Source: Streblomastix strix (lineage: Eukaryota). Taken from it: a DNA stretch of 32,735 nucleotides. The position numbers were made by a program, and so were the translations under genes. This document shows, in pieces, positions 3,137 to 28,180 of the stretch. Under the pieces are notes generated by a model. It searched no databases and was not told the origin of the DNA. It saw nothing but the letters and a program-made list of their open reading frames with translations. Position 1 is the stretch's first letter, and each line of letters opens with the position of its first letter. Location: assembly GCA_008636045.1 (NCBI GenBank), contig SNRW01000066.1, forward strand, positions 1 to 32,735, read 5' to 3'.

Positions 3137-5352
3137 TTGAAATGGAAGAAACAACTTTTCGACCTGATTAGACATCATTATTCGGTACAACAAGTGGGGC
3201 AGATATATAAGTATGAATATTTTATATTTTATTCTTATTTAATCACTTTATTAATTTTTCAGACAATTATTCCCAGTTTGATACAAGATCTCGAATCTGA
3301 TGTAACAAATCTGCATATTCCTGCACTTAGATAATTACTGGAGATTATATTGGATAGTATTATTTCATTATTTTATTCTATTATTCTGTTATATTCACAT
3401 TTACCTTTCTTATAATTTCAGATCGTGAAAACAAAGATTTGACATCGAAATACAAATTGATGCGTTTGTTGAACAAATTTGTTGAAAATGTTGAAAAGAA
3501 TTAAGAATATGTTTAATATTTAATTAATTTAATTAATTAATTTAATTAATTATTTTTATTTTAAAAAATTTATTAAATTTTATATTAATTATTTTTTATC
3601 AGGTTCTGAGCACAACAATCTTACATGTTATTGGAGTTCGAAATGGAAGTGATAACAAAATGATTCTTGCTTGTGCTGCAACCGATTCAATTATTCTTTC
3701 TTTATTTGTATATTAATCATATTATATTTTACTTACTTTTATAATTTATTTATTTATATTCAGTCTCCAGATGAAAAATAATCGAAATCCGGAAGCAAAT
3801 CACTTTGTGAACTTATTGAAGAAAATGAAATAATCCGAAATTCACTGATGACAACTGGATTCATCTTGAAAGTTCAACATTCGTTCACTAATAACTAATA
3901 ATCTTCTTCTTCATCTTCATCTTCTTCTTCCTCATAAACAGAAATCACAACACCTTATCACGTGAAATGTGGAATTCTTGATGTTTTACTGAAACTTATT
4001 ACAAGTTGTGATGATCTTGAACCAACTTCAATTCTTATTCCAATATTAACTGAATTTCAGAAGAATGGAGAAAAAGAAATAAAGAAAAAATCGGAAAATA
4101 TTTTCTTTTTATTAAATGCCAAAGGAATCAATTCTCCTTCATCTGAATCTGAATCTGAATAATTAAAAGAAAAAGATTGCAAGATTCAATAATTGGAAGA
4201 ATCTAACAAACTTAAGGATGCAGAAATAAATAAATTGAAATAAGAGAATTTAAAAGAGAAATAAGAATAAGAAAAAGAAAGAATTGAAAAAGAAAGAAAA
4301 GATTAAGAAATAAATAAATTGAAAGACTAGAATTAAAAAGAGAAATAAGAAAAAGAAAGAGAAAGAATTGAAAAAGATAGAAAAGAAGAAAAAATAAAAA
4401 AATTGAAAGATGAAAATAAAAAAATGAAAGAAGAAAATGAAAAATTGAAACCAAAACCACCTCAAGGTTTATTCTTCTTTATTTATTAATATAAAAAATT
4501 ATTTTATTTCCATCTTTTTATTCATTCAATTCATCTGTCAATTCAGATTTCCCCATTGCAATCCATAATCCAGATCCATCAGATATTGATTTCTCTGATA
4601 TTGATGGAAGGATGAAAAAGATAACAAATAAACAAAGAAGAAGTAAAACAATCTCATTGACTCAAATATTAGAGAATGGAATCTGGGAAATTGAAACTGA
4701 ATTCTCTGGAGATCTTTAATTAACATGTTTATTTCTATTATATTTTGTTTATTAAATTTATTAAATTTAATTTTTTTCAGGTATTGGAGTTATGAAAGAT
4801 TCACTCAACTTCTTATTTAGATAACATTCTACACGTTGTTCTGGTATATTATTTCTTTGTTATTTTCCCAATCACTATTTTATTTTCATATATTTAACTA
4901 TTTTATTCTATTTTAAGATCGATGTGTTTCATATTCCTCAAAGTATATTTATCTTATTTTCATTTATTATTATTAATTTATTCTATTATTATTTTATAAT
5001 ACAGATAATGGATTGATGGATAAATTTTTTATAAAAACAATTTAACATCTGGAAATGAAGGATATTCAGCAGGTCAGAAAGTGAAACAATAATTTGATTC
5101 AGAAAAAGGAACATTGATATTCTTTGTTGATGGAGTACAAGAACCTGTTTATATCTCAGGAATTAAAGAGAAAGTTCGTTTCTTTGTATGATTCATTTAT
5201 ATTTAATATTCACATATTTATTTATTATATAATTTAATATCGTTCAGATTTGCATGTACGATGCTAGTTCTTCATGCACCATTCGATCTCTTAAGAAACT
5301 CAGTTCACCAACTTCTGAACATGTTCCAAATGAAAAAGCAGTATAATGGTGA
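3137..5352 (+). CDS. Host multi-exon gene: ARM/HEAT-like region, coiled coil, C-terminal SPRY/B30.2-like domain (5' end not defined; may be non-functional)
   Basis: Exons are separated by ~55-90-nt AT-rich GT...AG introns (e.g. 5186-5247). K/E-rich coil at 4160-4460. C-terminus FDSEKGTLIFFVDGVQEPVYISGIKEKVRFF/ICMYDASSSCTIRSLKKL...AVQW*, with TGA at 5350-5352. Confidence 0.7.
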
Positions 5353-7260: not shown

Positions 7261-7344
7261 ATAAGTAGTATATAAGTGAGAAGTTCGCCTCTTCATGTTT
7301 TGAAAGTCGTTTTGTATTTATAGCCCTCCAATAAATATAATAGT

Positions 7345-7420
7345 TTGGCTTTCATGGCTTAACGCTCATACGTTTCGCTGCTTGCGCAGCTCAACGATTC
7401 GCATTTCGCCATTCAGTCAA
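7345..7420 (-). other. Subterminal 76-nt hairpin with periodic GA/GA internal loops
   Basis: Plus strand TTGGCT-ttc-ATGGC-tt-AACGC-tc-ATACGTT-tc-GCTGC-[TTGC]-GCAGC-tc-AACGAT-tc-GCATT-tc-GCCAT-tc-AGTCAA. Confidence 0.75.
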
Positions 7421-7495
7421 TCCATTTACTTAATTAAAAAATTAAAAAATAAAATAAAAAAGTTTGTTTTCAAAGTTTGTTTTAAAACGTTAATG

Positions 7496-8086
7496 TCAAA
7501 TATATAATTCATATTCCCTCATTTGTGGCTAAGGTGGCAATTGTTAAATTTCGGGTTCTTCTTCTCTAACTTCTTCCTTCTAAATTATTTATTTTGGCTA
7601 TTTGTAGCCCTTTATTTTTTGCTTATATTTCTCTATTTGTTTAACAGCATCTTAATGTTATTATTTTATAAATGTATTTTCCGTTCTCAATCGTCTAAGT
7701 TCTTCCAAATCGAGCTACGGATTAGTATAATTTATCTATGGCTATTTTGAACTTTTAACTTTTCGCTTTCTGACTACTTTTTTTAATGGCTTTTCTCTTA
7801 CTTCGCTTTAACTTTATGAGCCTTCAGTTTCATTTTCATACTCCGCAATCTCATCTTCTTCTTCATCAATAGGTTTTTATATCTTCTTTTTCCCTATCCC
7901 CCCAGCGCTTCGTGCCTACAAAAGCACCTTATTTTATTATATCTAAGCTAATGCCCGCGCTGTTTTTTTCCCTTCTTCATAAACCTTTATTTTATTTTTT
8001 CCAACCTGCATAATATATCCATTATCGAAATATTCTATTTATATGCCATTCTCAATCAAATTTTTTAATGCATGTGCCTAATCCAT
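7496..8086 (-). CDS. Hypothetical viral protein (196 aa), charged/coiled-coil
   Basis: Open ATG 8086 to TGA 7496-7498 with TAR=Gln (MDQAHALKNLIENG...MREYELYI*). Confidence 0.65.
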
Positions 8087-8109
8087 TTTAATATTTTAAA
8101 AATAGTAAA

Positions 8110-8811
8110 ATGATTAAAGGAATCAAAAGAAATTAATTGCGCATGTCAAAGACAAAGAAATAAATGTCCCAGTTAAAATAAAAGGAACTACAGGACCAAG
8201 ATAAAATAAAACTGTAAATATTCGATGAAGCAATTAGCCGCATAAAAATAATGCCAGCAGAGGAAGCAACAACTGAAAGGTCTTTTATGTAGCCCCAAGA
8301 ACAGGAACAATCAGCAAGAAACCGTAAGAAATATAACATAAATAAATATAAAGAAGTGGAACGTACCACTGCACAAGTTGAGCCAGAAGAGGCTATATAA
8401 AAGCTTGCAGAAGAATAACCAAGAAATATATATTTATCTCATCCAAATTTAGAAGTTCAAAAGTTCGTCATTGACACAATTTGGCGAACAAATACCAAAC
8501 GCTAGCGTGGCGATGACGTTGTTTTCTCCTCGGATAACTTCATTAAATTCTGGGCACTAATCATCTAGAACGATGAGGAGGATGTTGAAATAGCATTAGA
8601 GGAAGCCATTATTTAACCGCATACATGCATACCAAAAAAGCTAAAGAAAAAGGACTTAATTAGAGTATAGGATATTTTAATCAAAAATGTATCCGTTAAA
8701 GTAATTGATAATGTATTGTATAATTCAATTGAAAAATTATTTCGGGTTAATTGTGATTTTATTCGTCTCAGTGATACACCAGAGACTGAAATAAATGAAA
8801 ATGATTTTTGA
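8110..8811 (+). CDS. Hypothetical viral protein (233 aa)
   Basis: Open ATG 8110 to TGA 8809-8811 with TAR=Gln (MIKGIKRNQLRM...TEINENDF*); divergent from 7496-8086 across only 23 bp. Confidence 0.7.
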
Positions 8812-8842
8812 AACATTAATAGAAACATTTAATTTTATATAA

Positions 8843-9880
8843 ATGGACACAGAAATTTTAAGAGATTTATAAAATCTCGATGAAGATGATTTAGCTAACG
8901 AACAATAATAGTTCCAACTATTGAAATAATAATAGAACGAGTAAATGAAATAAATTAAGTAAAAAATTCAATTAATGACAATCATTGATACTCAAACATT
9001 AAAGTGATTTTCTTATCAGTTTCAATTTTTTAAAAAGGATGTTGGTTTCGTTAATCTAAAAACCAATCAAACCATTCGCGGAATCAAAACATTTTTATCA
9101 CCTATTTATGTGGATAAAATAATCAAGCAAGGCGGCACAAATAGTTAAATTCTACTGGCTAATTGAGATACAACAGATATGGGGGATTTTTGCCTAAATA
9201 TTATCCTCATGCAATGGGGTAATTAATTATGGAGCCTAATGATGATATACGCAATTAAGGTATAAGGATAATGAAAAATAAGGCGAATTGGGATAGTTTC
9301 ATACTCACTGGCTGCAACGCCGATCCCTCAGATAGAGATGGTGAATGGAAAGTTGGATCTACTTCATCATAATTTAGGATATAAAAATAAGTAGATGATG
9401 CTTATGATTATAAGGGTATAATTATTGATTTCGATTGCACAACATTAAAATTTAACTATTAAATTGTTTCATCTTTACTTATCGAATATGCTACTTAATA
9501 AACACTTGGCATTGGTGTATTTGATTTCTGTACTTGGGGCTAAGCAACCTTATTAAATAACCGTGTGTATATTTTAATAGGTATAACTCACTCAAACCCT
9601 AATACTAATTGGAATATTGGATACACTCTATTTTCTGTTATACATGATTCTGCAATGTCAAACTTCAGTGGTTCATCTCGTAATTTACCCCTTAGTACTG
9701 TTATGTTAGTGACCAAGTAATCTAGTAATCCAGTGCTATAAACTAATGCTGTTGTTATTGATTGTTTTATTGACCCAGATGGGCAAATTAAAATTATTAC
9801 ATAATGCTAATTTAGTTTGCCTAATGATTTTTTTTGTATAAGTATGCGATTCATATGCTATTTATAATTAGACGAGTTGA
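8843..9880 (+). pseudogene. Second fibre-like gene, degraded
   Basis: Fragments QTIRGIKTF, IIKQGGTNSQILLAN*DT, QGIRIMKN and KGIIIDFDCTTLKFN parallel motifs in the 12368-14143 protein. Several frameshifts and an in-frame TGA at ~9164; the end coordinate is approximate. Confidence 0.6.
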
Positions 9881-9898
9881 TATTTTAATAATATATAA

Positions 9899-10024
9899 AT
9901 GAACCCCTATAATGAAACCATTATTTATATCCTTGATTAATTAAATATAAATTGACATGATATATTTTAAGCAATTTGGGAGGCAGCAATAAAATATGCC
10001 TGCGAAAGTAAGATATGCCGATGA
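9899..10024 (+). pseudogene. Very small viral ORF with one in-frame TGA
   Basis: TATATAAATG start context; MNPYNETIIYILDQLNIN*HDIFQAIWEAAIKYACESKICR*. Confidence 0.35.
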
Positions 10025-10038
10025 AAAATAATTATTTT

Positions 10039-12023
10039 TCAACCATTACGAATCATTGAGCCCCCCATCTCTCCAATCACCTCCATGATAAGCACTTATG
10101 TGTCTGGGTTATCATCAAACATTATCCTGACTATAGCATCACAAAGATAATGGGTAATTGGTGTCAGTCCAACCTATACAGGGTCAGGATACGCTCTTGT
10201 GCCACTAAATTCTGCAAAAACCTTTTATTTTTATGTATTATTTATATCCATTGTTTCATTAATTTCTAGCACTAAATTACCATTTAAAATAACCTATATA
10301 TTCGTTCTAGCACTAATTTTTGAAGAATTATAGCCTCGCATAAATGAATCATCAGTGGCTAATTTCCAAGCGAGCATAAATTTATTAGTGTATAATGTTT
10401 TAGTTTCTTTTGTTCCATTAAATAAAGTAGTTCGATAAAATATATTTGCTTGCTTCATATTGGCTGCTTCTGCGCTGTTATATCCATAAAAGTATTTTTA
10501 ATCGTCTGTATTTATATTCTCGAAGGTAAGAGAATAATACAAATCAGAGGGGGCACTAACTACATCCTAATTAACGAAACAATCAAACATTTAGCCATTA
10601 TCGGCTTAAGTTAATGCTTCATATGGTTATGGTATCACATGGCGCTAATCGATGACCAAATCGAAGGTGTGGAATAAGACAGTGAAAAACCACGTAGGAT
10701 ATTTAGGCATGGCGAAAGTCATAAACATAGCCTTAATGTTCGAGAATGACATAATACTTTATAGGCTGCCGCTTATGGTACCAAAATTATTAAATAGAAA
10801 ATTGGAAAATTATGACTTTATTACTTGTGTTGGGAAATTAATGATTTTTTGGCTTTGGATAAATTAAATAATCGCGTCCTCATTTTCTATATTGAAACAT
10901 ACATTTTATATTTTTAATTTTGTAAATACTGCATCTTTAATTTAGCTTATGGTGTTCTATGGTGCTTTACCATCAACAGCTACACCTTACATATTAACAA
11001 TTCGGGCACTAAATTTACCATAATTATATACATAGGTATCCGATTATGTGCCAGTGGTGACTACAACATGAGCAATGTCATTTTATAAATAAATTATATC
11101 TAGTTTCTCTGGTGGAATCATTTAATAAGCCAAATGACTATTTGCTACAGTATCAGTTTTATTTAGCCATACAACCTTCAAATCTTATAAGAAATCTTGC
11201 ATCCAGAGCTATAAATATAATGATGCGAAATTTCTTGTCAAAACAGGAAATGAATTAAATATCGGGTTCAATTAATTTAAATCAAAAACACCACTAAAAA
11301 CAATATCATCAGGTATTGGATAATACCATGCATTTGTTGCTGATCGTGTATTTATGTCGCTTAATGGCACGTCTATAAATACCCCACAATGGCGTTTTCC
11401 TGCTATGATACTTCTAGTGGTGAAACGCTGACGGAGTTATTAGTGCATAAATCACTTAATGAATTTGTACAAATTACGGCTTGCTCTCTTGCATAAATTG
11501 ATGTATCCCATAATTTCGTGCTATCTTTACATATGGTAAATTAATTAAATGGGCCGCAAGCAGTGGAAAATCCTAACCAAAAACGCAAAACTTCAATTAG
11601 TGCATATCTTTATGCCCCCTATGTCATATCGTCAGTTTGTTCAGTTGTTATACTCGCTTTTCCATTAAAATTTACAGCTGCATTAGCTGCTGCGTCGCTA
11701 TTAACGACCGTCGCAGGTACTTTATTTAATTATATTGCCAGTGTATTTTTAGGTATTTTTATAGCCCAATTTACTTAGCAAGTTTAAACCATTGAGCAAG
11801 TAGTCGATCCTCTTGCTGCTAGTGGAGCACGGGTATATTTAACACCGGCAGATTTTAATTGAGTAAATGGCTGGTCAAAAAATTCTTATTTTGATATGGT
11901 GAAAGATTATGGGTGAATGCTCATGGTTTTCAATACCTTCCCCATAGCCATATAGTCACTAATCTAGTCCGAGTGTTGCATTTTAGCCAATCTACTTAAA
12001 TAATCGCTTGAGTTGAATGACAT
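10039..12023 (-). pseudogene. Probable major capsid protein (double jelly-roll expected), one 1-nt frameshift
   Basis: ~660-codon reading frame MSFNSSDYLSRL...FWLGFSTACGPF...SIYAREQAVI...KFMLAWKLATDDSFMRGYNSS...EMGGSMIRNG*. One A is apparently missing at ~11412 (PLE/SIIAGKRHCG). The capsid assignment rests on size, beta-rich composition and context; there is no diagnostic motif. Confidence 0.65.
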
Positions 12024-12104
12024 TTTAAATAAATAAAAATAAATAATATAAACGATTAAATTAATGATTAAAACAAATGAATCTATTATTTTATTATAAA
12101 GTAA

Positions 12105-12311
12105 ATGGGATTTTTCAGTAAGATAGCAAATTTCGGTTCGAAAATTTTAGGTGAGGTTAAGCATGCGGCTCAGTGGATAGCTCCAACTCTTCATAAAGTT
12201 CTTACAACTGTTGCTGGACCAGCAGGAATGATCAATCCAGGCATTGGCGCCGCACTTGGTGCAGGTTCTAATCTTGCAGGGGCAGTGGATAGATTGGTAA
12301 ATAAACGCTGA
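12105..12311 (+). CDS. 68-aa peptide, MG N-terminus, amphipathic helix; candidate membrane-lytic virion protein
   Basis: Intact ORF ending in TGA, divergent from the capsid gene: MGFFSKIANFGSKILGEVKHAAQW..., with a Gly/Ala-rich C-terminal half. Confidence 0.75.
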   Translation: MGFFSKIANFGSKILGEVKHAAQWIAPTLHKVLTTVAGPAGMINPGIGAALGAGSNLAGAVDRLVNKR

Positions 12312-12367
12312 TAGATCCATCAATGGCCACATTAATGTTTCCGTTAATTATTTTTATTTTTATATAA

Positions 12368-14143
12368 ATGCAAAGAAATAATAATCCACTTTCATAGTAA
12401 TAAATTAGAACGATAAGGTAATTAATCACAAATGATATAGCTTATTATATCCAGTATCAAAATCGTGATAGTGGTTCACGTAGTGGCCAATTGCAAAATG
12501 AAGATTATTAACTGTTTATAGATAACGATAACGCTTTAGTTTATGCTGCCAATAATTAAATCATTGATTGCCAAGCTTCAGATTTTGCATTAAAAATAGC
12601 CGCTGATGGTTTATTGACAGTAAAAAATTTAAAGGTTCTAAATTTTGATTTCGTTGCATAAATTAATCAATTAATTAATGAAGTAAATTAATTATAATCT
12701 GCCGTTGGTTCTATTGACTCTGATATTATTGGGGTAAAAAATGATATAATAACCATATAATAAGAGCTTGCAAGACAGCAGCATTTTCGGGGATATTATT
12801 TACTGAACACGGATATTTAAAATTTATCAAATTCCGCTGATGGAGAATTTGCATTAAGTGCCGAGAGTGGGACAGTATGGATGTATGACTCTAATTGGTA
12901 TAATAGCGGCGATATTGTCCCAGACTAGGTAACGCCTGCCAGTGATGCGGTGCCATTAGTGGATAGTGGCGCAGGTGTTGCTGGTATTTGCACAGAATAC
13001 GCCAGAGGGGACCATTAGCACCCCCTTTAAATTTCCGATGCTTTACCCCATGCTGATACTACCACGGGAGAGGCAGACACCGCAAATACTTATGCTAAAT
13101 CTGACCATACCCATCATGTAAATCTAAGTAATGACGTGCCACTAAAAGATTCAGGAACGGGAACATCTGGCACATCTAATATTTATGCCAGTGCTCAGCA
13201 TTAACACCCCCTTAATGTTGATCCAACTGTTGCAAATGTGCCACTGGTAAATACTACCGCAGCAGCTAATGGGATGAGTGATTTTTATAGTAGAAATGAC
13301 CATGTCCATCCTCAATAATTAACATATACGGGACTATTAGCTTCTGCCATGTTTATTAAAAATGGTGCCTAGGCAACTGATGTATTACTCGCAAATGGTG
13401 ATTCAAAACCTAAATCAGATATTGCGGGTGATGGGTTTGTGGCTAAAACAGGTAAAACGTTGCAAGCAGTATAAGATGTTTTACGTCATAGTGGCGATGA
13501 TGAAGAGTCGGAGGATGATGAGGATTATATAACTAGGGGAACAATATATAATTAATATGTTTCTAAAACATCGCCAGATACAATAATAGGTAGAAAAATA
13601 TTTAAAAATGATTACTTTTGGATATAACCAGCATCATCAACAAACCCATTAATTTTATTCAAAAATAGTAACAATCTTATAGAGTAATTAATAAATAGTA
13701 ATGAATTGATATTGACTATAAATACTGTTGATCCAGTTGGCATTCCATTATATATTAATTATCGGGGGAGTAGTTTAAGTACATAATATCCAAATTCATA
13801 ATTAGTTTAAAATTATATTTTAAAGGCAAGTTCATCAACATCATTTGCAGGCGTTACTTGTGGGACTACTTAAATAGATCCTATGGCAGATAATTTTAAT
13901 GATGGTTTAAGAATATCAAGAACAATAGAAAGTACAGGCAGTGCTTCGATTCAGTTAGGATGTAGTAGATCATCAAATATAGGATAAATTGCAGGATAAT
14001 AAATTATTTATACAGCAACAAGTTAATAAGGTGTTAATGCTTTAAGTTTTAAAATATCATTAGCATCTGATGCTGGTAATGCTAATAGAGGATTAGTTAT
14101 TTCAGATGATGGAAACACATCAACATTTAACGGAAGAGTATGA
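12368..14143 (+). CDS. Tail-fibre-like protein with four HxH repeats (591 aa)
   Basis: Open from ATG 12368 to TGA 14141-14143 with TAR=Gln. N-terminal coiled coil, then repeats YARGDHQHP, YAKSDHTHH, YASAQHQHP, YSRNDHVHP, then FIKNGAQATDVLLANGD and a C-terminal RGLVISDDGNTSTFNGRV. Confidence 0.75.
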
Positions 14144-14175
14144 TGATTCCGTTGATTATTTTTATTTTATATAAA

Positions 14176-14643
14176 ATGGATAAGCCAATAAAATAATTGT
14201 TTAATGAACTTGTTAAATTTCATTTTGAAAATGAGGATACAATAAGGGTAGCCATTGATACCCTAAATAATTTACTTATCAAAGATAATAAAGAGCCATT
14301 GCATCCACTTTTGAAAGAATTACAGAGGATAAATGAATAATTTCTAAATTTATAAAATAAATTATAAAGCATAAAATAATATGTCGATGAAGAAGAATAT
14401 AAAAATAAACTATTTAATGAACAGGAGAAATATTTTAAAAATAAATATAATTAAATTAAAAAGCAATTGGATTAAAATAACCAACCCCTATAAATCAAAA
14501 AATAAATAATTTCCGAAGCTAACGAAACAGAGAAATAAATATACACTGATTTTATAAATGACGCATAAAATAGTAGCTTGGTCAATTATTATCAGCTAAA
14601 CTTAACTTCATCAGGTAATTTAAGTAATGTAAATAGTTAATGA
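14176..14643 (+). CDS. Hypothetical coiled-coil protein (155 aa; may originally have extended to ~14860 or beyond)
   Basis: ATG 14176 in TATATAAAATG context; first TGA at 14641-14643. Protein-like sequence continues in frame past this and a second TGA at ~14692. Confidence 0.55.
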
Positions 14644-14881
14644 GTTCATCGGTTTTATCACTTACGGGTTCAATAAATGTATGATGATTTTTGAATTGCT
14701 GATAGGTTTATTTTTCATCCTCGGTTAAAATAGTTGGTTCAATTAATACCTCGAATATTTTAAATATCTCCTAATCTGTCGCGTTATATTATAGGCCAAT
14801 GTTTGTGGCTAATTAAAACAATTGATGCAATCCGTCAGAATTTGCCGAAGGCATTTAAGTAAAAATAAAAATAAATATTTT

Positions 14882-15244
14882 TCATATCCCAACGCATGAC
14901 TCATCGACGTATTCGTTTATGGCTTCGTTTATGGCTACGTTAATGGCCCCAATTATGACCTTCTTCTTATGATTCGATTATATGATTTGTTTTATGCTTA
15001 TTTTCTATTCATTATTATTCGTATCATTAAAGAATATATATTTTTCGTTAAATTTCCCGTACGATTTTAACTTTGTATAATCAGTAAAATCGCTATTTTT
15101 GGCCTTAATTGATTGATAAAATTATATGTTCCATAAAATGTGTTCATAAAATTATATGCCATTGATTTACTCTATTAGTTGCCCGTCCTACTTTACCTAG
15201 TTTTAGTTTAAATAAAATTCGAGTTTTTCAAATTGACTTTCCAT
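14882..15244 (-). CDS. Hypothetical viral protein (120 aa)
   Basis: Open ATG 15244 to TGA 14882-14884 with TAR=Gln (MESQFEKLEFYL...DESCVGI*). Confidence 0.6.
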
Positions 15245-15278
15245 TTTATATCAGATAAAAAACTAAAAAATAAAAAAA

Positions 15279-15446
15279 TCAAACTTATTATTTATCGTTG
15301 GGTAAATTCAACATTTTCAAATATAAAATGTATCGCCAGTTTTATGCTAATTCAAAATCTTTATTAGCTATTGCTTCGTTTAGAAATGCCTCAATTTATT
15401 ACTCCGTTAATTTATTTCAATGAATTATATTTTGATTCTTTCCCAT
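15279..15446 (-). pseudogene. Small viral ORF with one in-frame TGA
   Basis: MGKNQNIIH*NKLTEQQIEAFLNEAIANKDFELAQNWRYILYLKMLNLPNDKQQV*. Confidence 0.35.
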
Positions 15447-15666
15447 TTTCCTTCTATAAAAAAAACTATATTATATAAATTGTTATGTTTAGCGGCACCA
15501 ATACTATATCTAAATATCCCCACAATTATTTATCTAAATTAACTGTGTCCGTTAATCTATTAGGTATTGACACGGATAAAATAGATATAATAAAATTGAT
15601 ACCATAAAACATATAATTCATCACCCCCTTAATCAAATTCAAAATGATCATTTTATCCTCATAAAA

Positions 15667-16740
15667 ATGACATTTTAGGAATTACAAAATATTTAATTCA
15701 CGAACTAGGATTTACTGAATGAATATAGGACTAGGCCATTGACGAAAAATTCAGTGTTCCTCATCAACGGTAACCACTATATTGTTGGGGCTGTTGACTC
15801 TGGTAAAACAACATTAATGTCCAAGCTAATTATTATGTATAAGAATGCAATAGTGTAAATGCCAGTAATGGAAAACAATAAGTAAATAGCGACTCGCTCC
15901 GCTCGTCTTGACCCATATATATTATATTTCTCTAATTTTGGAGCGAATGAAACAATGGCATTAAATTTAAATAGTAAAGGAATATAAATAGTGAATATAA
16001 CATATGGCGAGGCAATGGTTTTTTTGTCAGAATTTGATGAGGTAAAATATTCAGCAAAAGAGGTGTATATTTATTATAAGTTTGGGGAATAAAATTATGA
16101 TTACAATAGCAATTTTATTAAACGAATGAAAGAGAAAATAATGGAAAATAACCCAATTAAACATGATGAAAAGCCATTAGTGTATGTCGAAAGAATTGCC
16201 GAACTATTTTAATCTACAATAATGGAGACCATAAATAAATACTCATAACCTAGCCAAATATTGCGGTTCAAAATTCCAGCACTAATTTAAAATGTATCTT
16301 TTCAAAAAAAATTAAAAGTAATAGATGATAAATAAACAGCAGACATAAAAATATTAAAAATACCTATTCTAAATGATGCACAATTATTGAATACATTAAT
16401 GCTCTTCGATGATGTTGGACCCAAAGCTGATATACAACGTTTTAGTAGTTCATTAGCCAAGACCATTACCCACTTGGTTAGTTATTCACGTCATAGTAAA
16501 AATACCATATTTTTTATAGCTTAACGTCCCCAATATTTGTTTAAGAAAGCGAGGATATTGTTGCACGTCATTTGTCTCGGGGTTCATTTAGGCGAGAGTA
16601 ATTTAAAATAAATTTATGAGGAGAATAGCATTTAAGGGCTTGATTACGATGAATTTTTATTATTATATGGCACGCTAAATAAATATGAGTTTATGGTTTT
16701 AAATAAGTGGCTCGGAAAATTCGAGCTATTGAGGAATTGA
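15667..16740 (+). CDS. A32/FtsK-HerA-like genome packaging ATPase (~357 aa)
   Basis: Walker A YIVGAVDSGKTT, Walker B LMLFDD, then the SRH arginine motif and FFIAQ, in the order typical of A32-like ATPases. ATG at 15667 and TGA at 16738-16740 are in the same frame. Confidence 0.85.
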
Positions 16741-16825
16741 GTCCTTGCAATATAGCAACCACTGATAAAATGATTTTGAAAACAACTTTATTTTTTTATT
16801 TTTTTATTTTTTTAACGACATTAAA

Positions 16826-17736
16826 ATGGAAGCACCAACAACGGCCACACAACAAATAATTTCAAACAATGAAACTTTCACTTTTGAAACCTATATGATG
16901 TTCGAGATAATGATACGAGATAAAGATGGATATGTTAATGCAACTAAATTATTAGCATAAATTAATGAACGTGAAAATACTGATAAATAGCTAAGAAAAA
17001 TATTTGAGTCTCCAGTATATAGAGATTATAAATAATTTCTGCAATATTTGTGTAGTGCCTAAATTAGGCACCACCCCCAGAAGAACTAGATTATTTGCTT
17101 CCATCAATATTTAATAATAATGTTAGAGGTAAATATATCCATAAAGATTTAATTAATATCATTTGTATGAAAACATCAATTAAATATTTACACCATGTAA
17201 ATAAAATAATGGATGCAATTAATGAACGTATAATAGCTACGCATGATGAAACAACAAGTATTTAAGAGCACGCAGCAGATACCATAAATATGGTCATTGA
17301 AGAATAAAATATAGCTATCGAAGAATATTAAAATGAAATAAAATAATTGAAACATCAAGCAGTGCCTAAAGATAAAGAAACAACATATTTATTAGCTATT
17401 GAATTAGAAGAAGAATGGCAGGATAAAATCACTTATTAAGTTAGACAATTAAATAAAAGACATTTATGCAAAAAAGAAATTAACCTATTTAAATATTCGG
17501 CGTTATTCTTTGATAACCTACCAATAGCAATGACCATAAATGAGAGGTTAAAAGAAGAGCTATAAAAAGAATTCATAGATATTGATTTCTTTAGTAATAA
17601 AATAACAGTGCCAGATGCAGATGACCAAAGACTATTGGATAGCATCAGCCGTATCATTGATGGGCTATACCCATTAATGTATCCGCATAAAAATAGCCCA
17701 TTAATGCTCAATCAATAACGTAATCACTAGCCTTGA
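16826..17736 (+). pseudogene. KilA-N domain DNA-binding protein, one frameshift
   Basis: IMIRDKDGYVNATKL...VRGKYIHKDLI is the KilA-N/APSES pattern, followed by a coiled coil. The frame changes near the C-run at ~17075; TGA at 17734-17736 overlaps the polB 3' end. Confidence 0.8.
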
Positions 17737-20700
17737 GCCCATAAACGTAAGGGCAACAGCTTTAATCTTTTAGCACTATAACCTTAGAGTGTATCCCAGT
17801 AATGTCATTCTTTTGTATTTCTATTTTTGAGATAATATAGTTCTTTTGCCTTAGTCTCATATTAGTCGCTTTTGTTATCGTTCCTTCATTAATGTTATCC
17901 ACTTTATTTTATTTACTATTTTTAGTCGTTTTCTAATTGACACCTTTTAGTTTTATCTTTTCTTTCTCGCCAACTTTAACATATTAATTTTTAGTGGCTT
18001 ATGCTATTATTTCTGTTCCTTCATTTTCGATTGCTAAACCTAGAACCTTTTTTTTCATCGTGTAAATCATTTTCTATAGTCGGGAAGTAATATTTAGCAT
18101 TATCATCATAAAATTATTTATCTTTAATCACATAATCAAATTATTATTTATAGATTTCCGTTTATTATCTTCCATTAATAGTATTACCAATATCCGTATT
18201 CCCACTAACCGCCCAATAAGCCGAATCAGTATATCCCTCCACAAAATGGAGTTTATCCATATCCAAACATTTGTACATAAAATTATATATAAAATTAAGA
18301 TACCAATATTTAGCATTATCCAGCACAAAATATGCCTCCTATATGGGTGTTTTACAAGTGCAAGTCTCAGGGTTCATTTATACCGCGTATGCATTATAAC
18401 CCAATTATTGTTCATCCATAAACATATTTGACAAATGGGCCTTTAGTGCTTCCTTCTAATCCAAGACTTTAATTTCGGTATATTTCTCTGTGTTCATTCC
18501 ATCAGATCCATATGATGAGTTCATAGTAATTTTACAAAATTGTTCTAATCCTTTATTTCCATCTAATTTCGTTTAAATTCGCTTGCCTATAAATTCCTTG
18601 ACGAACAGATTAAATCCTTCATGCTTATTGAATAAAATTAATTGCTTTACATCATCTATATTAAAGTGGCAGTCATCAATTAAGAACCATAAATAGTATG
18701 AGTTAAAAGACATAACTTTTTTATTGTTGATAATAAATTTGTTAGTTTTCACAATTTTATTCTGTTTTAATGCCATTATTTTTCATATGGTTATACATAT
18801 AGGAGCCAATGGTATCCTCATTAGTGGTAAATTTATAATTTCTTAAAATATGGGGGAAATTTATGAAATCATTAATGCATTTTTCGTCAATGTGTTCCTT
18901 TATCTCAGCAATAAATAAGTAATCACGACCATTAATGATATCCATTATTTTATCCTTATCATCAGTGCCGTCAATAACAGAGCCAGCCATATACATTTTG
19001 CCACCCGCACTTCGTGGGCTTCGCGTATATTTAATAAATTTATGTTCCGCTGATAACATAACGCTGGGATATAGAGAATTGAAATCAACACCTACGACAT
19101 GAGAAATTACATTGTTTGACGTTTGAACATGAACCTTCTTTTCCTCATATACGAATTATTTTATTACCTCTTTACCAGCTATAATTTCCCTATGCATGAC
19201 GTTAGACAAGCCGCCAATTATGCCACTACGAATGAGTTTATAATCTTCAAAATTTGTTAAATTAGTCGGGAGACATTTAAGCATGCAAAATCTTTTAAGC
19301 TATATAAATAATTTACTAATATTTTTATCTTTATTTGAACAATATTTATTGCAATATAAACAACATGGTTTTAAGTTTTCTTTTGTATGAGGTAAATCAT
19401 TATTGATACGGTCAAGTATTGGACGGTTATTGAATGTAAATTTATCCCCACAAATGGCACATGCTGATGTCTCTAATAACTGCTTAAAATAATCGAAATC
19501 AATGACGGAAAGGGGCTCCGAAGGAGATCCAACGCTTTAGTGTTTACCAGCCGCAGGCAGAGGCCGTGCCGACCTAATGGTTTGCGGATTGCTCTGCAAT
19601 CCTTTTCCACGATGTTTAATTTAGTCCTAAAATCTATAGCAATCCACTTTATATTTCCAATAAGAGGGATATGAAACGAATTTATTTGAATTATCTGGAA
19701 AGGGGGGATAATTAGCATTTATGTCAAAGTCCTTATAGGCTAATACGTATTTGATAGTGTTTGCACATGCAACCATGGACATAAATCTAAACATATCAAT
19801 TTTATACTCTATATTCATTTTTATTAAATTGTCTATTGGTGCTATCAATATTTTTGTATCCTGTTCGTTGTAATACTATAAATAATCCCACCTATTTTTA
19901 AATTATTTTGCGTCGTCTAAATAATTTATATATTCGGCTTCGCTCATTGATGAATTCTTTAGTGTTGAATTGAATGCCTCTTGGGGGAATGGATCGGATA
20001 AATTTAATAGTTCGGTATAGTTATCGGTATTAATGTATTCATATGGAAATACGCCTTTTTCATTGCCTTCAATAGAATCTCCAAAATTTTTAGCAAAATC
20101 CTTCAATGTCATCGGCTGAACATAAACCATTATATGGATGATTCCGCCCAAAACCAACCATTAATCTTTTTTCATATAAATATCTTTTAAATAATTTTGG
20201 AAATAATTTTCGTAAATAAAAAAATCTTAATTATTCATATTTAAAAAAAAAGTATAAAAAATATAATTCTGACAATTTTACTGCAAGAATGTGACTTAGG
20301 TTTATTATTAATACTAATATTAATTTATAAAATGGATTAAATTTAAAAATTGCAACTTTTTTTATTTTTTAGCGGCAGTTAGAGCAAATATCGGCAATTT
20401 TTGACATTTTTCATTTTTGCATTACATATTGAGTCATACTTTTTATTTTTGGTAATTTTGAGTAATAAATATTATTTTATAAATGATAATATGAATAATT
20501 TTATTTTATGCTTTAAGCAATGCTCGCAATTCGCAAAAAAAAATAAAAAAACGCATTTTTACAATGTACAACTATTAAATTATGTTATTTTATTATTAAA
20601 TAACTGTAAAAAATAATGTATAAAAATAATTAACATAAAAACAACAAAATCAATCGAAACAATTGTAAAAAATGAAAAAAATAAAAAAATCAATTTTCTG

Positions 20701-23171
20701 CCCCCTGAGCCGCGGAAACTGTAATATTATATAATAAATATATTTTAAAAAATAAATAAATAAGTTTGGATACATATTGGTGATAAATACAACCAGATTC
20801 ATAAAAATAAATCGGAATTATTTTTTTCGCACTTTTTTCGAAATGTGCACAAATATGTTTTTTACATTTATCAAAATTAATTCTAAAATTATTTTAAATA
20901 TTTTTATATTAAAAAAACATTAATGTTGCTTGAGAGCGGAACCACCCATATCACAGAATTTTAATTTAATTTATGAGTGCCTATGTTTAACAATAATTGA
21001 TTTCGCTTATGATGAACTGCCAATATAGCTTTTAATTTCCCAGTCTAACGATTATAGATTTTTTAAATATTAATGCAAAATCGAACTTTGTGCTATTGAA
21101 TCCAACGAAGGGAACTTCATTTGTAGTTAAAACATTAATTATTTTATCGTCATATTAATTGTCTTATTAAATTTATTCCGCTTCTTTGAATATTTATTTG
21201 TGCGATTAATTTTTAAAATTATCTCCATTTCGAAAGTCACAATATGTTGTTTTATACCTTATCTATTCTTAATTGTCGAGGCTACAGAAAGAAGAACTAA
21301 TTATGAAATCTATTTGCTTGATTTGCCAAAATCGTTATTAACTACTTTCTCCACTGTTTCAAAATCAAAAGTGATATAGTACTATGTTGGTTTAAATTCA
21401 TTTTCTCGATTATTTGCTAGTAAATATTAATAGATTTTGTTTTATATTATTTATGGGCAAAAAGGTCTTTGCACTGCTTCCGATTTAATTTCTTTGACTA
21501 TTTTACCTTCAATTATCTCGCATTTATTAATGTTTTTCTCATATTGTGCAACGAAATGAATGTCTTTAGAGTCAAATGCTTTTTATTTACAGAAGGGGCA
21601 AAATTTCAATCCTGTTAAAGATTCTGTATTCGAGATATAAAAAGCATGTTGAATCGTTGGTGTTTATTCATCGCTGGCTATATCAAATAATACATTAAAT
21701 TCAGGTACTTCAACGGGTTCATTTATTGTTTCATCGCTGGATTCATCTGCGGCTTCATTAACGTCTTCATTATATATATATATACCTTTGATTAATAATA
21801 ATATGTTTAATTTTCCACTTAATAACTATAAATATTTACATTAATTTTCTCCCCTAAAACGAATTTATCAATTTCTGTTTCATTATCAAATCCAGTGAAT
21901 TCATTTAGCCATTTTTGGAAATCATTTTCAGCAATACCATAAAATTTAGCCATATGTTCTTTTGCAATATGCTCTCGTGAATGTTCTTTAATTCTTTTCT
22001 CTGGAGTATCGGGATATTTAAATATATTATAAGCGTAGAACCAGCATATATTGTATTTGCTTCTTGCCGTTCTCAAACAGTTTCTATGACCCTTCACATG
22101 AAAATCAATTAGTTCCTTAATGCTGCCGCCTATGTGATACTGAGATAGTTTGAACGTTTTTATCATCATTGAATAAATCGCTATGAATCGTAATTTTGTG
22201 CTATCTAAATTATAGTTCTACATTTCAATTATTTCAGATTTTACAAATTGTTTATATTCCTCGAGATATTATTTATTGATGATTGATTTAGGGGTGTGCT
22301 TTTATGTCCTTGATTCATTGGGCGTAATGTTTCCGTATGATACTGCCAGATGACCATTTTTGTCACTATTTTACTCCTCATAAATTACTCCAAAATCAAA
22401 GGTAATTTTAAAAGGTTTATGGTTTTATTTTTCATAGACTTCATCAATAAAATTATTTATCTCGCCTAAAGAATAAATGAGATTGTTATAATATGTATAG
22501 CTCATTTCACCTTCATTATCTTTTTCAAAATGATACCCTTGGCGTGCCTAACTAACTGCTTCAATAAATTTATCCCCGATTTATGGAGGCAAATAAAGCA
22601 AGGTATTATACCAGTCATTTTCAATTTCATTAACTTCACCATTATTGTATTAGTTAATTTTATCCTTAATTTCATCGTTCTATAATATATCAATGTATAT
22701 TTATGGAAGAACAAAATTGCGTCTGGTTTCGCTAAAGTTCAAGGGCTTAGTGAATTAAATTGTTTCGTTGAGCAAACGCTATTGGATCTATTAATCATAT
22801 TCCTATTATGCTTATTCCTATTATTGTTCGTGTCAATATTCAAGCAAATCCTATTCATATTAATTTTAATGGAAATAATTGATTTTGTTATTTTACTCCA
22901 TTAGTTGTTGCTATTATTGTTGATGCTATTGATGCTATTGTTGTTGAAGTTGGTAATTCTGTGCTTCTTGCTGGGCCCTTCGAACCTGCACTGCATTTGC
23001 AATATATATTAATTGGGTTAAATTATTTCTTCGCCTTTTGGGGTATTCTAATTAATCCAATATTTGATTTAGTTATTATTTTAGTGCTGGTACTCTTAAA
23101 CGACGATTAACATTATTTTATCCAACACATTCAAGCAATAATAAAATTTCCTTCTTCTTTAGATATGGCAT
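17708..23171 (-). pseudogene. polB: Protein-primed family B DNA polymerase (~1500 aa), disrupted by frameshifts and a MITE
   Basis: With TAR=Gln: ExoI YITFDFET (~21360), ExoII VGFNSTKFD (~21090), GVDFNSLYPS (~19075), CKITMNSSYG (~18520), EGDTDS (~18235), KLKGV near the C-terminus. ATG at 23171, TGA at 17708-17710. Frameshifts near 22860, 21240, 18750 and 18050; insertion at 20136-20947. Confidence 0.93.
20136..20947. mobile_element. Non-autonomous DNA transposon (MITE, 812 bp) inserted in polB
   Basis: Imperfect TIRs of ~140 bp (left GGATGATTCCGCCCAAAACCAACCATTAAT..., right reverse-complement GGGTGGTTCCGCTCTCAAGCAACATTAAT...). ATAT flanks both ends (20132-20135, 20948-20951). Removing the element plus one ATAT restores the frame LKFCD-IMVYVQPMTL. 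Confidence 0.9.
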
Positions 23172-23243
23172 ATTTATTATAAATTAAAAAAATAAAAAAA
23201 TAAATTTAGTTTGGATAAATTAATTATGTTATATATGGAAATA

Positions 23244-23352
<109 letters not shown>

Positions 23353-23353
23353 A

Positions 23354-23668
23354 TCAATGTTCAAATATAAATTCGTAGTTAATGGCATCAAATTCGGTTT
23401 TCAATTCTGGATATGATTAATATAAAACATTGATGATTTCTTTATCTTAATATAGCCGTTATTTGTATATTTTTATCCATTTTTATGCTTCATCAATAAC
23501 ATCATTAATTAGTTTCCGTTATTGAACCAATTTATGACATCCAAAAGGCATATACTATTGAGTATATTTATCTGGGTTAATTATTTAATCTTAATAAGCT
23601 TTAATCTTCCGAATACAGAAAGCGTAATCTATTGCTGTTTATTAGTAGTAATCGATTTTTTTGTCCAT
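23354..23668 (-). CDS. Hypothetical viral protein (104 aa)
   Basis: Open ATG 23668 to TGA 23354-23356 with TAR=Gln ([10 protein letters not shown]...YEFIFEH*). Confidence 0.65.
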
Positions 23669-23685
23669 TTATAATAAATAAAAAA

Positions 23686-25145
23686 TCATTAATATTAAGT
23701 TTCTAGTAGTAAATTATTGTACATATCACAATATTACGTCGGCACCTTACGCCCAAAGTTATCATATAATGTAAATACCACTGATTTATTTTAGCCAATA
23801 AAACACTCTTACGAAATCATGTTTTATCCCCATAAAACTGGGGCATCAACCAAGTTTTATTTGAAGCACACATTATTGAACCCATTACCCCCGACAGTCT
23901 CCATCGTTATACCCTTTAATTAATTATTTATGCATATAATTAACATCTGGGGATATTCTATAAAATTACCTATAAATGGACAGAATATTGGCAGGTCTGA
24001 TATCAAACTATTAGCAGAAAATTTAATCTTATAAACCAATGTTTCTAAATCAATCTATTTAATTGATGATGTGAAATTAACTAATTAATTTGCTTTATTT
24101 TCATTTAGCCCATCATATAAATCTAAGGCACCAACGAGTTAGGCATATAAATTTGGTGACAATATTAATTTTTTAGCATACCAATTAATATGTTCAACTG
24201 CTGCATATTCACAAACAACTTCAGCGATGAATTAACCTTAAAAACCAGTCCTTCCTACAGCTGCATAAATATCCATCCATTCGCTAGTGGTTAAAGCTGG
24301 TAGTGAGCATATTATTCTCATGGGGAAAGTATTTATATTATTGATTATTTATTGCATGGTCTATTATTATACATCAATTGGCTGGTCATCTAATGTTGTT
24401 ATCACGCCCACTGAACTAATATTTATACGCTTACCAAATAAATAATGTACAGATAATGCATTTGACGCTAAGGGCTCAACAGAAGTTATAAAGTTATTTG
24501 TAGTTGGGCAATATAATCGGATTAATCCTATTGCTCGATATGCTACACCATTACTATAATCCATTATCCAATAATGATAAAGGAACGCGTCAATTCTTAA
24601 ATTAATATAATTCACTGCTGAACTTACTATATCTGAACCACAATTTGTATTAAATGAAAATTGATTATTTGATAATTTTATGTATGTTCATTCTGGGGGT
24701 TATTGAAGCAAATAGTGCCTCGGTTTGTTGTTGTTTACTATTTGAAATATTTTTCTTATCCGTCAATCAAATTAGTAAATTAAGGAACTTAAAGAGCAAG
24801 CAATTATGGAACATATTTATATCCCTGATTATCTTAGTCATCAACGTATTAATTATTAATGGCTGTATTTAAATTTAGCCTGATAGGTGGCAACTCCGTT
24901 AATGCTTATAATGTAAAAGTATTATTTACGTTATCTAGTTAATAGTATATTTTTCAGTTGGGGGTAGAAATTATATTATGTTAAATTTCTATATAATCAC
25001 TATTTAAATAATAGGTTAAATTTATTGGGATATTATTAATGCTATTCACTTAAAATGAATTATAGCCTGAGGGTATGGTGGTCTTCCATGAAACGAAAGC
25101 TTCTTATGAGTCAGAGCTAATAATTTTTAAGCCAATGTTTGACAT
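23686..25145 (-). pseudogene. Frameshifted ~480-codon viral gene; candidate minor capsid/structural protein
   Basis: ATG 25145 in TATATAAATG context (MSNIGLKIISSDSQEAFVSWKTTIPSGYNSFQVNSI...). Long beta-rich open segments with several frame changes; the function is guessed from context only. Confidence 0.45.
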
Positions 25146-25169
25146 TTATATAAAATTAAATTATTGAAA

Positions 25170-25412
25170 TCATTATTGTTTTCCATTAATGCTTTTTCCA
25201 TTCAATAATTCAATTAATTTCATAACTGCATTTTAGCTATTTTCTTAGGCTATTAATATGATTTCTTTTAGCTCTTCCATCTTCAGACGCTTATTAAATT
25301 ATCTCAATAAAAATCGAAGTTCAATTTCGGGGTCTGATTTCGTGGCTAAAGAAACTAAAGAACTAAGAAACGAATTATAGACCATGAATTCTTCGCATGA
25401 TATTTTAATCAT
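25170..25412 (-). CDS. Hypothetical viral protein (80 aa)
   Basis: Open ATG 25412 (TATATAAATG context) to TGA 25170-25172 (MIKISCEEFMVYNSFL...). Confidence 0.6.
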
Positions 25413-25442
25413 TTATATAATGGTAAAAATATATTTTCATTT

Positions 25443-26486
25443 ATGTTTAAGAGCTAAAATTTGAGTTGTGAGAAGAATAAGACTAGATATAGAAAGTATA
25501 ATATCAATGGCTTCCATTTGTACCTAATTAAAATATAATATTATTATTAGAATATTTTAAAATCAAATAAAATTTCATAATTGAATCATAAAATAGGCTT
25601 GAAGTCATAAAGACAATATAATACACGAGTTAAAACAAAAGCTGCATAAGAAAAAGCAAAACATAAAAGATCAGCCAGCTCAATCCATATAGTTAGCCCA
25701 TAGGATTATATCCCCGCTGATTAAATCGGTAATGTAGAAGAATCAGATGATGACTTTATTTATAGGTAACAACGATAATATCAAAAATAAGCATTAATGG
25801 CAGCAAGACGCAACGCCATTAATACCATGCAAAATAGCTTGATAAATTAAGTTCAAGAATAAAACCATCTCTTTGGATTGCTTTACAGAATAAAGGACCC
25901 AGCTTTTACTGATATATATAACCATAATGCTGTGATAAACGAACCCGCTAATGATACAGTTAGCAGAACTATACCATGGCACATGATATAGTTATAAAAT
26001 TTAATATAATGTGGTTGCTAATCAAGTGGTGTATCATAATTAAGGAACGAAACTGATTTGTAATAAGGAACATCAACGTAAGACGCATTTAGCTAATAAA
26101 CGGATTAGGATATGGGGCAATCAGAGGGATAAAATATTGGTTAATAATTGCGGGAAGAATATTAATAGGCTAAATTATGGAGTGATTAATTAATATAGGA
26201 TAATAAAGAAACAAATAAATTAGAATATTAAGCAGGGGCCTCTGATTGGGGATAACCACCCATAAACAGCTCATATACTAATAATCCATATCCCCGAAGA
26301 AATACGGGATATTATATGAATGTGGGAGGTATGCCATCATTAATGTTGAAAAATGAAGTTTATGATAAATAGAGTAAAATAAATATACCAAAGGAGCGAA
26401 AAAATTATATAAAAACAAGCTAATTAATATAATCAGCCACCGCATAAGGAAGGCTATAGAAACACGGTAAAAATAAGAAAAAATGA
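25443..26486 (+). CDS. Hypothetical Gln-rich protein with basic N- and C-termini (up to 347 aa)
   Basis: No in-frame TGA between ATG 25443 and TGA 26484-26486; the true start is uncertain. Confidence 0.55.
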
Positions 26487-26488
26487 AA

Positions 26489-26977
26489 TCAAAAAGTTTA
26501 TACTGCTACATCTACCTGCTCTATATTCACTTCGATTATGTCAATGATTCTAATTAAATCCTCTTTTGATAAAACAACTTTATTTAGCATTTTTTAGGCT
26601 GATAATTATAGCTCAGAAATGTCAGATTTAAATACCCTTTATTTTTCTCTCAATCCTTATTTAAATTGTTTTCGTTGTAATCTAGCTATATCTCTAGCCT
26701 CCTCTTCAGTGTAATATTTCCGTGGCCTGCCTTGCCTTGGTGTTGCAGGCCTTGGAGATGGTGCCTCTGCTGACGGCTCAGTTGTTGGCTCTGCTAATGA
26801 TTCAGCTGACGGCTCCATAGGAGGCACCACTGATGGCTCCATTACTGGCTCTATTACTTGCTCCATTGATGGTTCCTCAATTGATATCGTTTATGTTTTC
26901 ACTTTTTTTACATATTTTTTATGTAGTTTTTTCTCAAGAATTGGCTTTTCGATTTGTTCATTTATTTTTCCTTCCAT
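26489..26977 (-). CDS. AT-hook-containing protein with EP-rich repeats (162 aa)
   Basis: Open ATG 26977 to TGA 26489-26491; EPxx repeats, then PRQGRPRKY (AT-hook GRP core) and a helical basic segment. Confidence 0.7.
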
Positions 26978-27015
26978 TTATTAATTGACAAAAAATAAAA
27001 AATTAAAAAAATTAA

Positions 27016-28180
27016 TCAATTTAATTTAAATGTTCGTTTATATTTCTATTGTAAAGTATCAATGGAGTCAGCCACTTTCTTTAAGTAAAAGGCAGGAACT
27101 TCAACAGTTTTAATATCTTTGTATGGTCTTATTAACTCACAAATAACGTTTCCATGGCTATAATTAATGAATGTTGCAATTTCATTAAATTATCGTCGTT
27201 TCTTTTCGAAATTATGCTGTGTTTTTGATAGGTCAAGATGTATCATTATTACATTACCTTAGTGAAGGTCTAATAATTTATCCCTTGTTTATAGTTCCTT
27301 AATGCTGGATGCATCTTTCATTTTCTAACGAATATATATCTTCTAAATCTTCTGATTCATTAACTTACTGAGGGGTAAATTTATTCTTGAACGCTGAATG
27401 CTTGGTGTTATTGTAGTCATCAACGACTTGCTACATTTGCTTATTATTAGCTATGAGCTGGTCATCGTCTTCAAATGCATTGCTTATTGTGCGGACTACA
27501 GAATCAACGATACGGTTTTTATTGATAAATTTGGAAGAGTTAAAATATTAGGTGATATTTTATTCTTTCGAATAATCCTTTATTTGATTGCTACCGAGGG
27601 CGGCCTCACCATCAGATCGAATATTGGAAACATGCTGGTCTTTTACTAATTATTTTAGGCATTTGAGTAATTCATTAGTTGATTTATCTTTGATAGGATA
27701 AACTATTAAATATTTTGTATTAATATTTATGGCGAAAAGATAATGCTAATTGATTTTATTTATGGTGGGATGCATAATGAAAATAACATCAATTTCCCAA
27801 CTACCTAATAAAGGCGAATAATATAGTCGTTGATATTTCATTAATGGGTTTAATTTAATATCTTGGACAATATTAGTTTTATCTTTCGCTTTACTTCTGA
27901 AGGGATTTTATATTTTCGGTGGCTCAATTTATTCCTTTATTTATTTTGGCTTGGTATTTTATTTAATTCTTTCAGCGTGATATTTTAAATAATTATGTAA
28001 ATAAATTTTATACCATTGCGATATTGATTTATTTTAAAATATCAATTCTAAATTATTTATTGTAAATTATTAATTAAAATAATTATTGATATTTCTAATG
28101 AAATCCTTTAAATTTATTTTATCATGCTTAAAACTTAAATTGTCAATTACTTGCTCAATTGGTTTATTTCTATTGGACAT
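27016..28180 (-). pseudogene. Retroviral-like (RVE) integrase, one C-terminal frameshift
   Basis: GSWEID...YLFAININTKYL...IRSDGE...NRIVDSVVRTI...YNNTKHS follows the RVE core layout. ATG at 28180, TGA at 27016-27018; an apparent 2-nt loss in the (AT) run at ~27332 lies downstream of the catalytic core. Confidence 0.85.

Follow-up and report, generated by a model that had tools for sequence, protein, structure and literature searches.

The two copies of a SPRY-domain gene found in one stretch of the genome of Streblomastix strix, a protist of the termite gut, diverge mostly in predicted binding-domain loops, at about four times the rate of the neighboring introns. The stretch, hereafter the window, is 32,735 nt long (contig SNRW01000066.1 of assembly GCA_008636045.1, positions 1 to 32,735); its DNA is eukaryotic and AT-rich, and its reading frames follow genetic code 6. 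On balance, and with moderate confidence, we favor the reading that these genes belong to an S. strix SPRY family of at least 207 members forming a cytosolic repertoire, in which one loop face is under diversifying selection for foreign targets, e.g., proteins of Polinton-like viruses; the immune function of the family is putative. A preliminary description of the window had reported hypervariable SPRY-like loops between tandem paralogs, and its observation stands with corrections, while its interpretation is partly supported.

The locus and its two SPRY copies

Between the SPRY copies are 24 kb that hold a pseudogene (repeat B2) and a 21-kb viral element. The three copies of repeat B were located by self-comparison of the window, whose main features are:

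680-2773: repeat B1
3142..5352, + strand: copy 1 SPRY gene, a 10-exon model with no internal stop under code 6
4547..5352, + strand: copy 1 SPRY domain (exons 4547-4726, 4781-4843, 4918-4942, 5005-5185, and 5248-5352)
5629-7263: repeat B2
7264..28500 (right end approximate): Polinton-like virus, a unique 21-kb stretch between the SPRY copies
10039-11451, − strand: capsid ORF (270 relatives, of which several bear the name major capsid protein)
15571-16740, + strand: ATPase-like P-loop ORF
17008-17736, + strand: KilA-N
about 18021-20433, − strand: PolB pieces (DNA_pol_B_2, E=2e-8), split over several frames
27233-28312, − strand: rve integrase (E=1e-4, below cut-off)
about 28510-29804, + strand: copy 2 SPRY, with a coil-type N-terminal exon and the SPRY exons
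28700..28701, + strand: ARM-type/coil-type junction, where the two kinds of N-terminus join the same downstream coil-SPRY and where the self-BLAST match begins
29128-29130, + strand: in-frame TGA of copy 2, glycine in copy 1 and in 8 of 8 paralogs
30267-32359: repeat B3

Copy 1 is intact, encoding 537 residues in 10 exons separated by 9 GT-AG introns. Its protein comprises, in order, an ARM-like N-terminus, a coiled coil with charged repeats in the coil region, and the SPRY domain, directly after which it ends. The N-terminus matches those of the ARM-type paralogs P0010 and P0004, and P0010 is the closest full-length paralog, alignable along copy 1. Copy 2 has five SPRY exons, each of the same length as in copy 1. 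Upstream of 28700, however, its matches (83–88%) are P0006, P0007, and P0009, whose N-termini are of the coil type, and three contigs of sequencing run X1 depart from copy 2 at 28700 into ARM-type sequence. No start was seen in copy 2, whose 5′ end is missing beside the viral element, and the usual SPRY acceptor reads AT, not AG, although a substitute in the same frame lies 21 nt upstream. None of the aligned sequencing-run contigs lies over its TGA or across the virus-to-copy-2 junction. Judged from its sequence, copy 2 is likely a pseudogene, and the earlier picture of two like tandem ARM-coil-SPRY genes is not confirmed in view of the TGA, the coil-type N-terminus, the missing start, and the distance between the copies.

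An in-frame acceptor pair 21 nt apart precedes the SPRY domain in both copies (4525-4546 in copy 1, 28975-28996 in copy 2). Copy 1 retains only the downstream acceptor and copy 2 only the upstream one, so that a 7-residue linker is omitted or added; forms with and without it are both present among database paralogs.

The intervening element carries a Maverick/Polinton-like gene set (protein-primed PolB, capsid, integrase, and ATPase), and endogenous Polinton-like viruses in S. strix are described in the available portion of PMC10120064. The 120 listed of the 270 capsid ORF relatives are all from S. strix; neither phage records nor viral contigs gave a match to this ORF. The element opens with AGTAGT, which we take to be a typical Polinton end, exactly at the end of the repeat B2 homology, and no matching right end was seen. 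In a search for terminal inverted repeats, the left-end 17-mer had no second copy at 3 mismatches and there was no long end-to-end match. The right end has probably been lost, and the element seems to replace the B2 flank and the 5′ end of copy 2. Within it lie a 662-codon ORF with repeated ‘DH.H’ motifs (12155-14143), possibly a fiber or spike protein, which gave no meaningful Pfam match; a TA microsatellite of ∼100 nt (23246-23345); and, near the right viral end, a GC-richer stretch (28190-28400) with tRNA-promoter-like boxes and hairpin-like repeats, which is multi-copy in run X1 and had no ARAGORN or Rfam match. There was no tRNA or Rfam match anywhere in the window, and no RNA datasets are listed for it.

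Repeat B, presumably ARM-like, might have been a second hypervariable gene, but we discarded this idea because B1, B2, and B3 all have stops and frameshifts in the frames shown and Pfam returned nothing meaningful. Its protein-like stretch runs on the + strand at about 1790-1975 and appears to continue on the − strand at about 1630-1100, which suggests an internal inversion common to all three copies. Pseudogene B1 is a mosaic with respect to B2 and B3 (clustering p=3e-4; runs test p=5e-5).

Divergence of the SPRY domain between the copies

Read in code 6, the sequence contains the four patches reported earlier, each in its reported place: KQRRSKT/KQSKLNT, SLNFLFRQHSTRCS/PFNFTAGQHSTYYP, QWIDGQIFYKNNLTSGNEG/QWEDGSIWYKLNWIDGNEG, and CMYDAS/CMHYVG. 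Over the whole SPRY coding sequence the copies differ at 49 of 553 nt and in 34 of 183 codons, a count that includes the stop, and the differences are clustered, with 29 short gaps against 11.7 expected (p=1e-5). The proposed dN/dS comparison gave pN 0.102 and pS 0.036, a ratio of 2.99 (Fisher p=0.025) that points to an excess of replacements and comes from this one pair. The introns had been described as almost identical. This does not hold, since the five differ at 8/78, 4/54, 2/74, 4/62, and 1/62 positions (1.6–10.3%; pooled, 19/330 = 5.8%) and the one quoted, at 1/62, is the best of the five. The degenerate repeat pair B2/B3, duplicated along with the genes, served as the neutral yardstick; it diverges by 7.7% with no clustering (p=0.22). 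Because the intron rate does not differ from that of B2/B3 (p=0.24), the introns are at the local neutral rate, and the fast part is the loops.

Variable patches were set from the 8 other close-subfamily proteins (P0004-P0011), the copy 1/copy 2 pair being excluded from the definition. Among these paralogs 117 of the 183 sites are invariant and 28 have at least three residues, giving 45 patch codons after merging, and 20 of the 34 changed codons of the pair fall inside them (p=2e-6). Patch pN is 0.276 (27.6%) against a patch pS of 0.08 (p=0.025), with 27 synonymous sites in the patches. It also exceeds the divergence of the pooled introns (0.058; p=7e-9), of even the worst intron (p=0.003), and of the B2/B3 pseudogene (0.077; p=5e-9). 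The framework of the pair has pN 0.044 and pS 0.022 and is 4.1% diverged; six or seven of its 14 differences seem private to copy 2, as decay predicts. In copy 1 the variable loops are:

4630..4650, + strand: variable loop 1 (residues 28-34, KQRRSKT), which follows the third predicted strand
4708..4725, + strand: variable loop 2 (residues 54-59)
4798..4922, + strand: variable loop 3 (residues 66-82), across intron 4844-4917
5005..5059, + strand: variable loops 4 and 5 (residues 90-95 and 100-107)
5248..5271, + strand: variable loop 6 (residues 150-157, CMYDAS)

The densest 36 nt, in loops 4-5, hold 15 differences. Loop 2 is unchanged between the copies, yet it is the most variable among the 8 other paralogs, with 6 and 7 states at sites 57-58. 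In each of the 8 other subfamilies (124 aligned sequences), the patches are 48–64% conserved as compared to 72–89% for the framework, which is supportive only, because loops generally vary more.

Within the loop region, the motif WIDG falls in the first half for copy 1 (5009-5020) and in the second for copy 2 (29487-29498), with coding sequences alike at 11 of 12 nt. The second-half form is common to copy 2 and P0011 and the first-half form to copy 1 and P0004; because these paralogs share the two forms, exchange or recurrence suffices as an explanation, rather than local copying.

SPRY fold and family

The model of the P0006 domain, folded with 124 sequences, reached a pLDDT of 96 and has the bent beta-sandwich of SPRY/B30.2 domains. 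Foldseek placed it with TRIM67 (E 6e-9), and its structural matches are the SPRY domains of TRIM67, SPSB3, RanBP10, TRIM9, Ash2L, and GUSTAVUS, the best at Z 18.5 (rmsd 2.4, 158 aligned, 17% identity) and identities to solved SPRY domains ranging from 10 to 19%. The SPRY-like character proposed for the loops' domain is thus borne out. Only the fold search succeeded among solved structures, sequence searches of which gave no SPRY domain at useful E-values. Pfam SPRY (PF00622) is matched by 60 of 124 members at E≤0.05, but among 9 proteins examined only P0022 passes the gathering cut-off, and single window exons had no match.

In the predicted model, 26 of the 28 hypervariable sites lie off the strands, as compared to 94 of the 183 sites overall. 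They are mostly in loops 28-32, 54-59, 66-82, 88-95, 99-107, and 153-157, and six loops or turns (7-12, 42-44, 121-124, 131-132, 135-136, and 141-145) have none. The peptide contacts of SPSB1 (R77, Y129, and W217, according to the available part of PMC2923778) land close to residues 28, 80, and 154 of the model, each of them part of a variable loop, in an approximate mapping that uses the end offsets of the aligned ranges (model 1-169, SPSB1 50-232) and topology, not coordinates. The modeled variable loops are therefore likely to match, approximately, the TRIM/SPSB peptide-binding face, and loops of this kind make up the ligand surface of TRIM5-type domains in the accessible text of PMC3137616. 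As regards the earlier expectation that the variable sites would map to one surface, they lie mostly off the strands, and the single face is an approximate placement; as regards its analogy to positively selected TRIM5-type loops, the replacement excess is seen in one pair, the face again coming from offsets.

All 41 homologs found in a first search with the main SPRY exon are named Streblomastix strix. A profile search gave at least 207 SPRY proteins among 7,991 scored candidates (all 120 listed being from S. strix), and a broader one returned 382 clusters at 50% identity; among 20 clusters looked up, 17 were from S. strix, 2 from Monocercomonoides exilis, and 1 from Blattamonas nauphoetae, and several were named kinases. 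Some database paralogs could be alleles. Searches with exact DNA patterns found no paralog DNA in metagenome, viral, or genome contigs.

The N-terminal profile, built from 22 long members, matches importin alpha ARM repeats (E=2.4e-5, profile positions 27-135; atlas ARM matches 0.92-0.94), a match that covers only part of the N-terminus, and 18 of 131 members are ARM-type by a crude motif count. A full-length model of P0010 made without an alignment (pLDDT 46.5) was used for the coil only: helix 250-316, its sole confident part, is a coiled coil before the SPRY domain. The preliminary proposal of an ARM-coil-SPRY family is sound for the ARM-like N-terminus of copy-1-type genes and for the existence of a large protist family, but not for copy 2 as a working member. 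By a crude motif, 32 of 131 members have an F-box-like motif before the SPRY domain, which copies 1 and 2 lack; the call is weak (Pfam F-box in 7 of 26, below cut-off; atlas score 0.79), and no solved F-box matched this part. The F-box-like-SPRY subgroup includes P0021, P0028, P0032, and P0068; P0039, P0053, and P0066 are ARM-coil-F-box-SPRY chimeras, P0130 matches HECT, and P0122 is fused to ketoacyl-synthase pieces. For 124 members, neither RING nor B-box appears in the 25 families shown out of 41, and 9 proteins checked have neither. A crude hydropathy test picks out just 3 of 131 members with any strongly hydrophobic stretch (19-residue value ≥1.8), and P0010, with a maximum of 1.18, has no signal peptide by this measure.

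Four-gamete tests found 10 of 21 framework site pairs incompatible, and the N-terminal type conflicts with 3 of 7 framework sites. This pattern suggests segment exchange between paralogs, with several of the incompatible sites being single-base Q/E swaps, changes that may have happened more than once. One contig of run X4 jumps over 474 nt of the window and has 293 letters in their place; the exon-only distance there is 284 nt, P0021 is longer by 3 residues, and both loose ends of the contig translate to motifs found only in P0021. Most simply, this contig would be a spliced transcript of the F-box-like P0021, from a run not recorded as RNA, and it says nothing for copy 1 itself.

Explanations for the variable loops and known systems

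Under the reading we favor, genes would duplicate and swap segments, keeping framework and introns alike, and exchange would move one SPRY type between ARM and coil N-termini. Diversifying selection would retain new loop variants while copies die, in a process of birth and death. The SPRY face would bind the target, for which we have candidate ligands only; the coil may dimerize for avidity, as in TRIMs, in which dimerization of the coiled coil gives avidity; and the N-terminal module (ARM, F-box-like, or kinase) may hand the target to degradation or signaling. Endogenous viruses would be the most obvious pressure, tied to the SPRY genes by shared genome and locus alone. A more far-reaching version, in which S. 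strix has, independently of animal TRIMs, evolved a germline-encoded, TRIM-like antiviral repertoire whose hypervariable SPRY heads, hundreds in number, recombine among ARM, coil, F-box, and kinase tails in an arms race against its own Polinton-like viruses, is a tentative proposal that we regard as doubtful.

The strong diversifying selection proposed from the pair is supported by its loop-focused replacement excess and by variation of the same loops in other paralogs, but the DNA-level signal comes from one pair with few synonymous sites, one partner of which is apparently a pseudogene. Moreover, because loops vary more than strands in any family, the protein-level pattern alone is no proof of selection. 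Given the mosaic B1 and the clustered divergence, imported tracts could make patches here without selection, and gene conversion of this kind, in which short distant tracts survive purifying selection only in tolerant loops, agrees with the mosaic signals in both the paralogs and B1, with two purely synonymous changes in or beside the densest patch, and with the sharing of one loop half by copy 1 and P0004 and another by copy 2 and P0011. Conversion, however, should lift synonymous divergence at least equally, whereas patch pN exceeds patch pS, and it sits poorly with up to 7 residues at one site among 8 otherwise close paralogs and with a framework that has diverged so little; we consider it unlikely. 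Somatic or targeted hypermutation of the loops, in line with the targeted diversification suggested earlier, is most improbable, despite the multi-base codon changes and sharp patches that it would explain. The check for base-biased mutation came out negative, the patch spectrum being like that of the pseudogene (p=0.15), and A taking part in 19 of 32 changes where the region's own A content is 41%. Third codon positions are the least affected (12, 13, and 7 patch changes at positions 1, 2, and 3), and together with the neutral-like spectrum this fits selection on protein rather than base-targeted mutagenesis. No template repeat of the loops appeared in the window self-comparison, and run X1 contains both the copy 1 patch, matched exactly over 134 nt, and a variant with 14 differences, at similar depths (38 and 41), as expected of discrete genomic copies, though contigs lose rare variants.

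Diversification to recognize or manage bacterial symbionts or their delivered proteins, rather than viruses, would leave the same signal of selection, and S. strix does have bacterial symbionts, going by the title of a reference cited in the available parts of PMC10703272 and PMC10120064. Surface display, as the symbiont recognition proposed earlier would have it, is disfavored because strongly hydrophobic stretches are so rare among the members (3 of 131, by the crude test); responding to bacterial proteins inside the cell is compatible with this result, but distant relatives occur in Monocercomonoides and Blattamonas, and we think the symbiont explanation quite unlikely. The SPRY domains might instead be adaptors for many host proteins, or be caught in internal genetic conflict, and diverge by gaining new cellular substrates. 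The closest solved folds (SPSB, RanBP9/10, and Ash2L SPRY) bind host proteins, and fusions named for kinase, F-box-like, and HECT parts are compatible with regulation; because housekeeping adaptors are expected to be few and conserved, in contrast to at least 207 members with rapid loop change between recent duplicates and a dead copy, we give this explanation little credence.

To our knowledge, how protists recognize viruses or other non-self inside the cell is largely open. If the favored reading of a selected cytosolic repertoire is true, the family would reuse the SPRY binding face with the signature of an arms race, carry the TRIM5/finTRIM/SPRYSEC pattern over to a metamonad, and provide a concrete, testable candidate: its variable loops are defined, there are candidate ligands, the genome contains viral capsid genes by the hundred, and the cultured relatives Monocercomonoides and Blattamonas have homologs. 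None of the open-access papers searched mentions both Streblomastix and SPRY, and among those listed for oxymonads none brings in SPRY; the genome paper of M. exilis (PMC6759080) has no word beginning with ‘spry’, and that of S. strix, which lies outside this literature, or its supplements might mention the expansion.

Several known systems resemble this family in part. As described in the accessible portion of PMC3137616, TRIM5-alpha and the fish finTRIM, btr, and trim35 proteins share with it expanded paralogs, a C-terminal SPRY beta-sandwich preceded by a coil, hypervariable loops, and recombination among paralogs, and their loops are positively selected. They differ in having a RING and B-box, where here none was found and the N-terminus is ARM-like or plain coil, and the S. 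strix family belongs to a unicellular host and has its function read from sequence only. In the available text of PMC5071358, the SPRYSEC effectors of Globodera pallida (about 300 SPRY genes) likewise number in the hundreds and undergo intergenic exchange, and their hypervariable surface A, the counterpart of the loops here, is under positive selection. SPRYSECs are secreted into the host via a signal peptide, whereas the S. strix proteins are without a hydrophobic leader by a crude test and have long N-terminal modules. The family thus falls outside both TRIM (no RING/B-box) and SPRYSEC (no leader). SPSB/GUSTAVUS proteins have the same fold (Z 17-18), with peptide-binding loops that correspond approximately to the variable loops here; in the parts of PMC2923778 and PMC4555926 available, however, their binding face is conserved and a SOCS box ends the protein, whereas the S. 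strix proteins have a hypervariable face and stop right after the SPRY domain. The F-box and MATH-BTB families of nematodes likewise show birth-and-death expansion and selection on the substrate-binding domain, and are proposed to sense foreign proteins and break them down, as far as the available text of PMC4334554 goes; in S. strix the substrate domain is SPRY, and the window copies are without the F-box-like motif.
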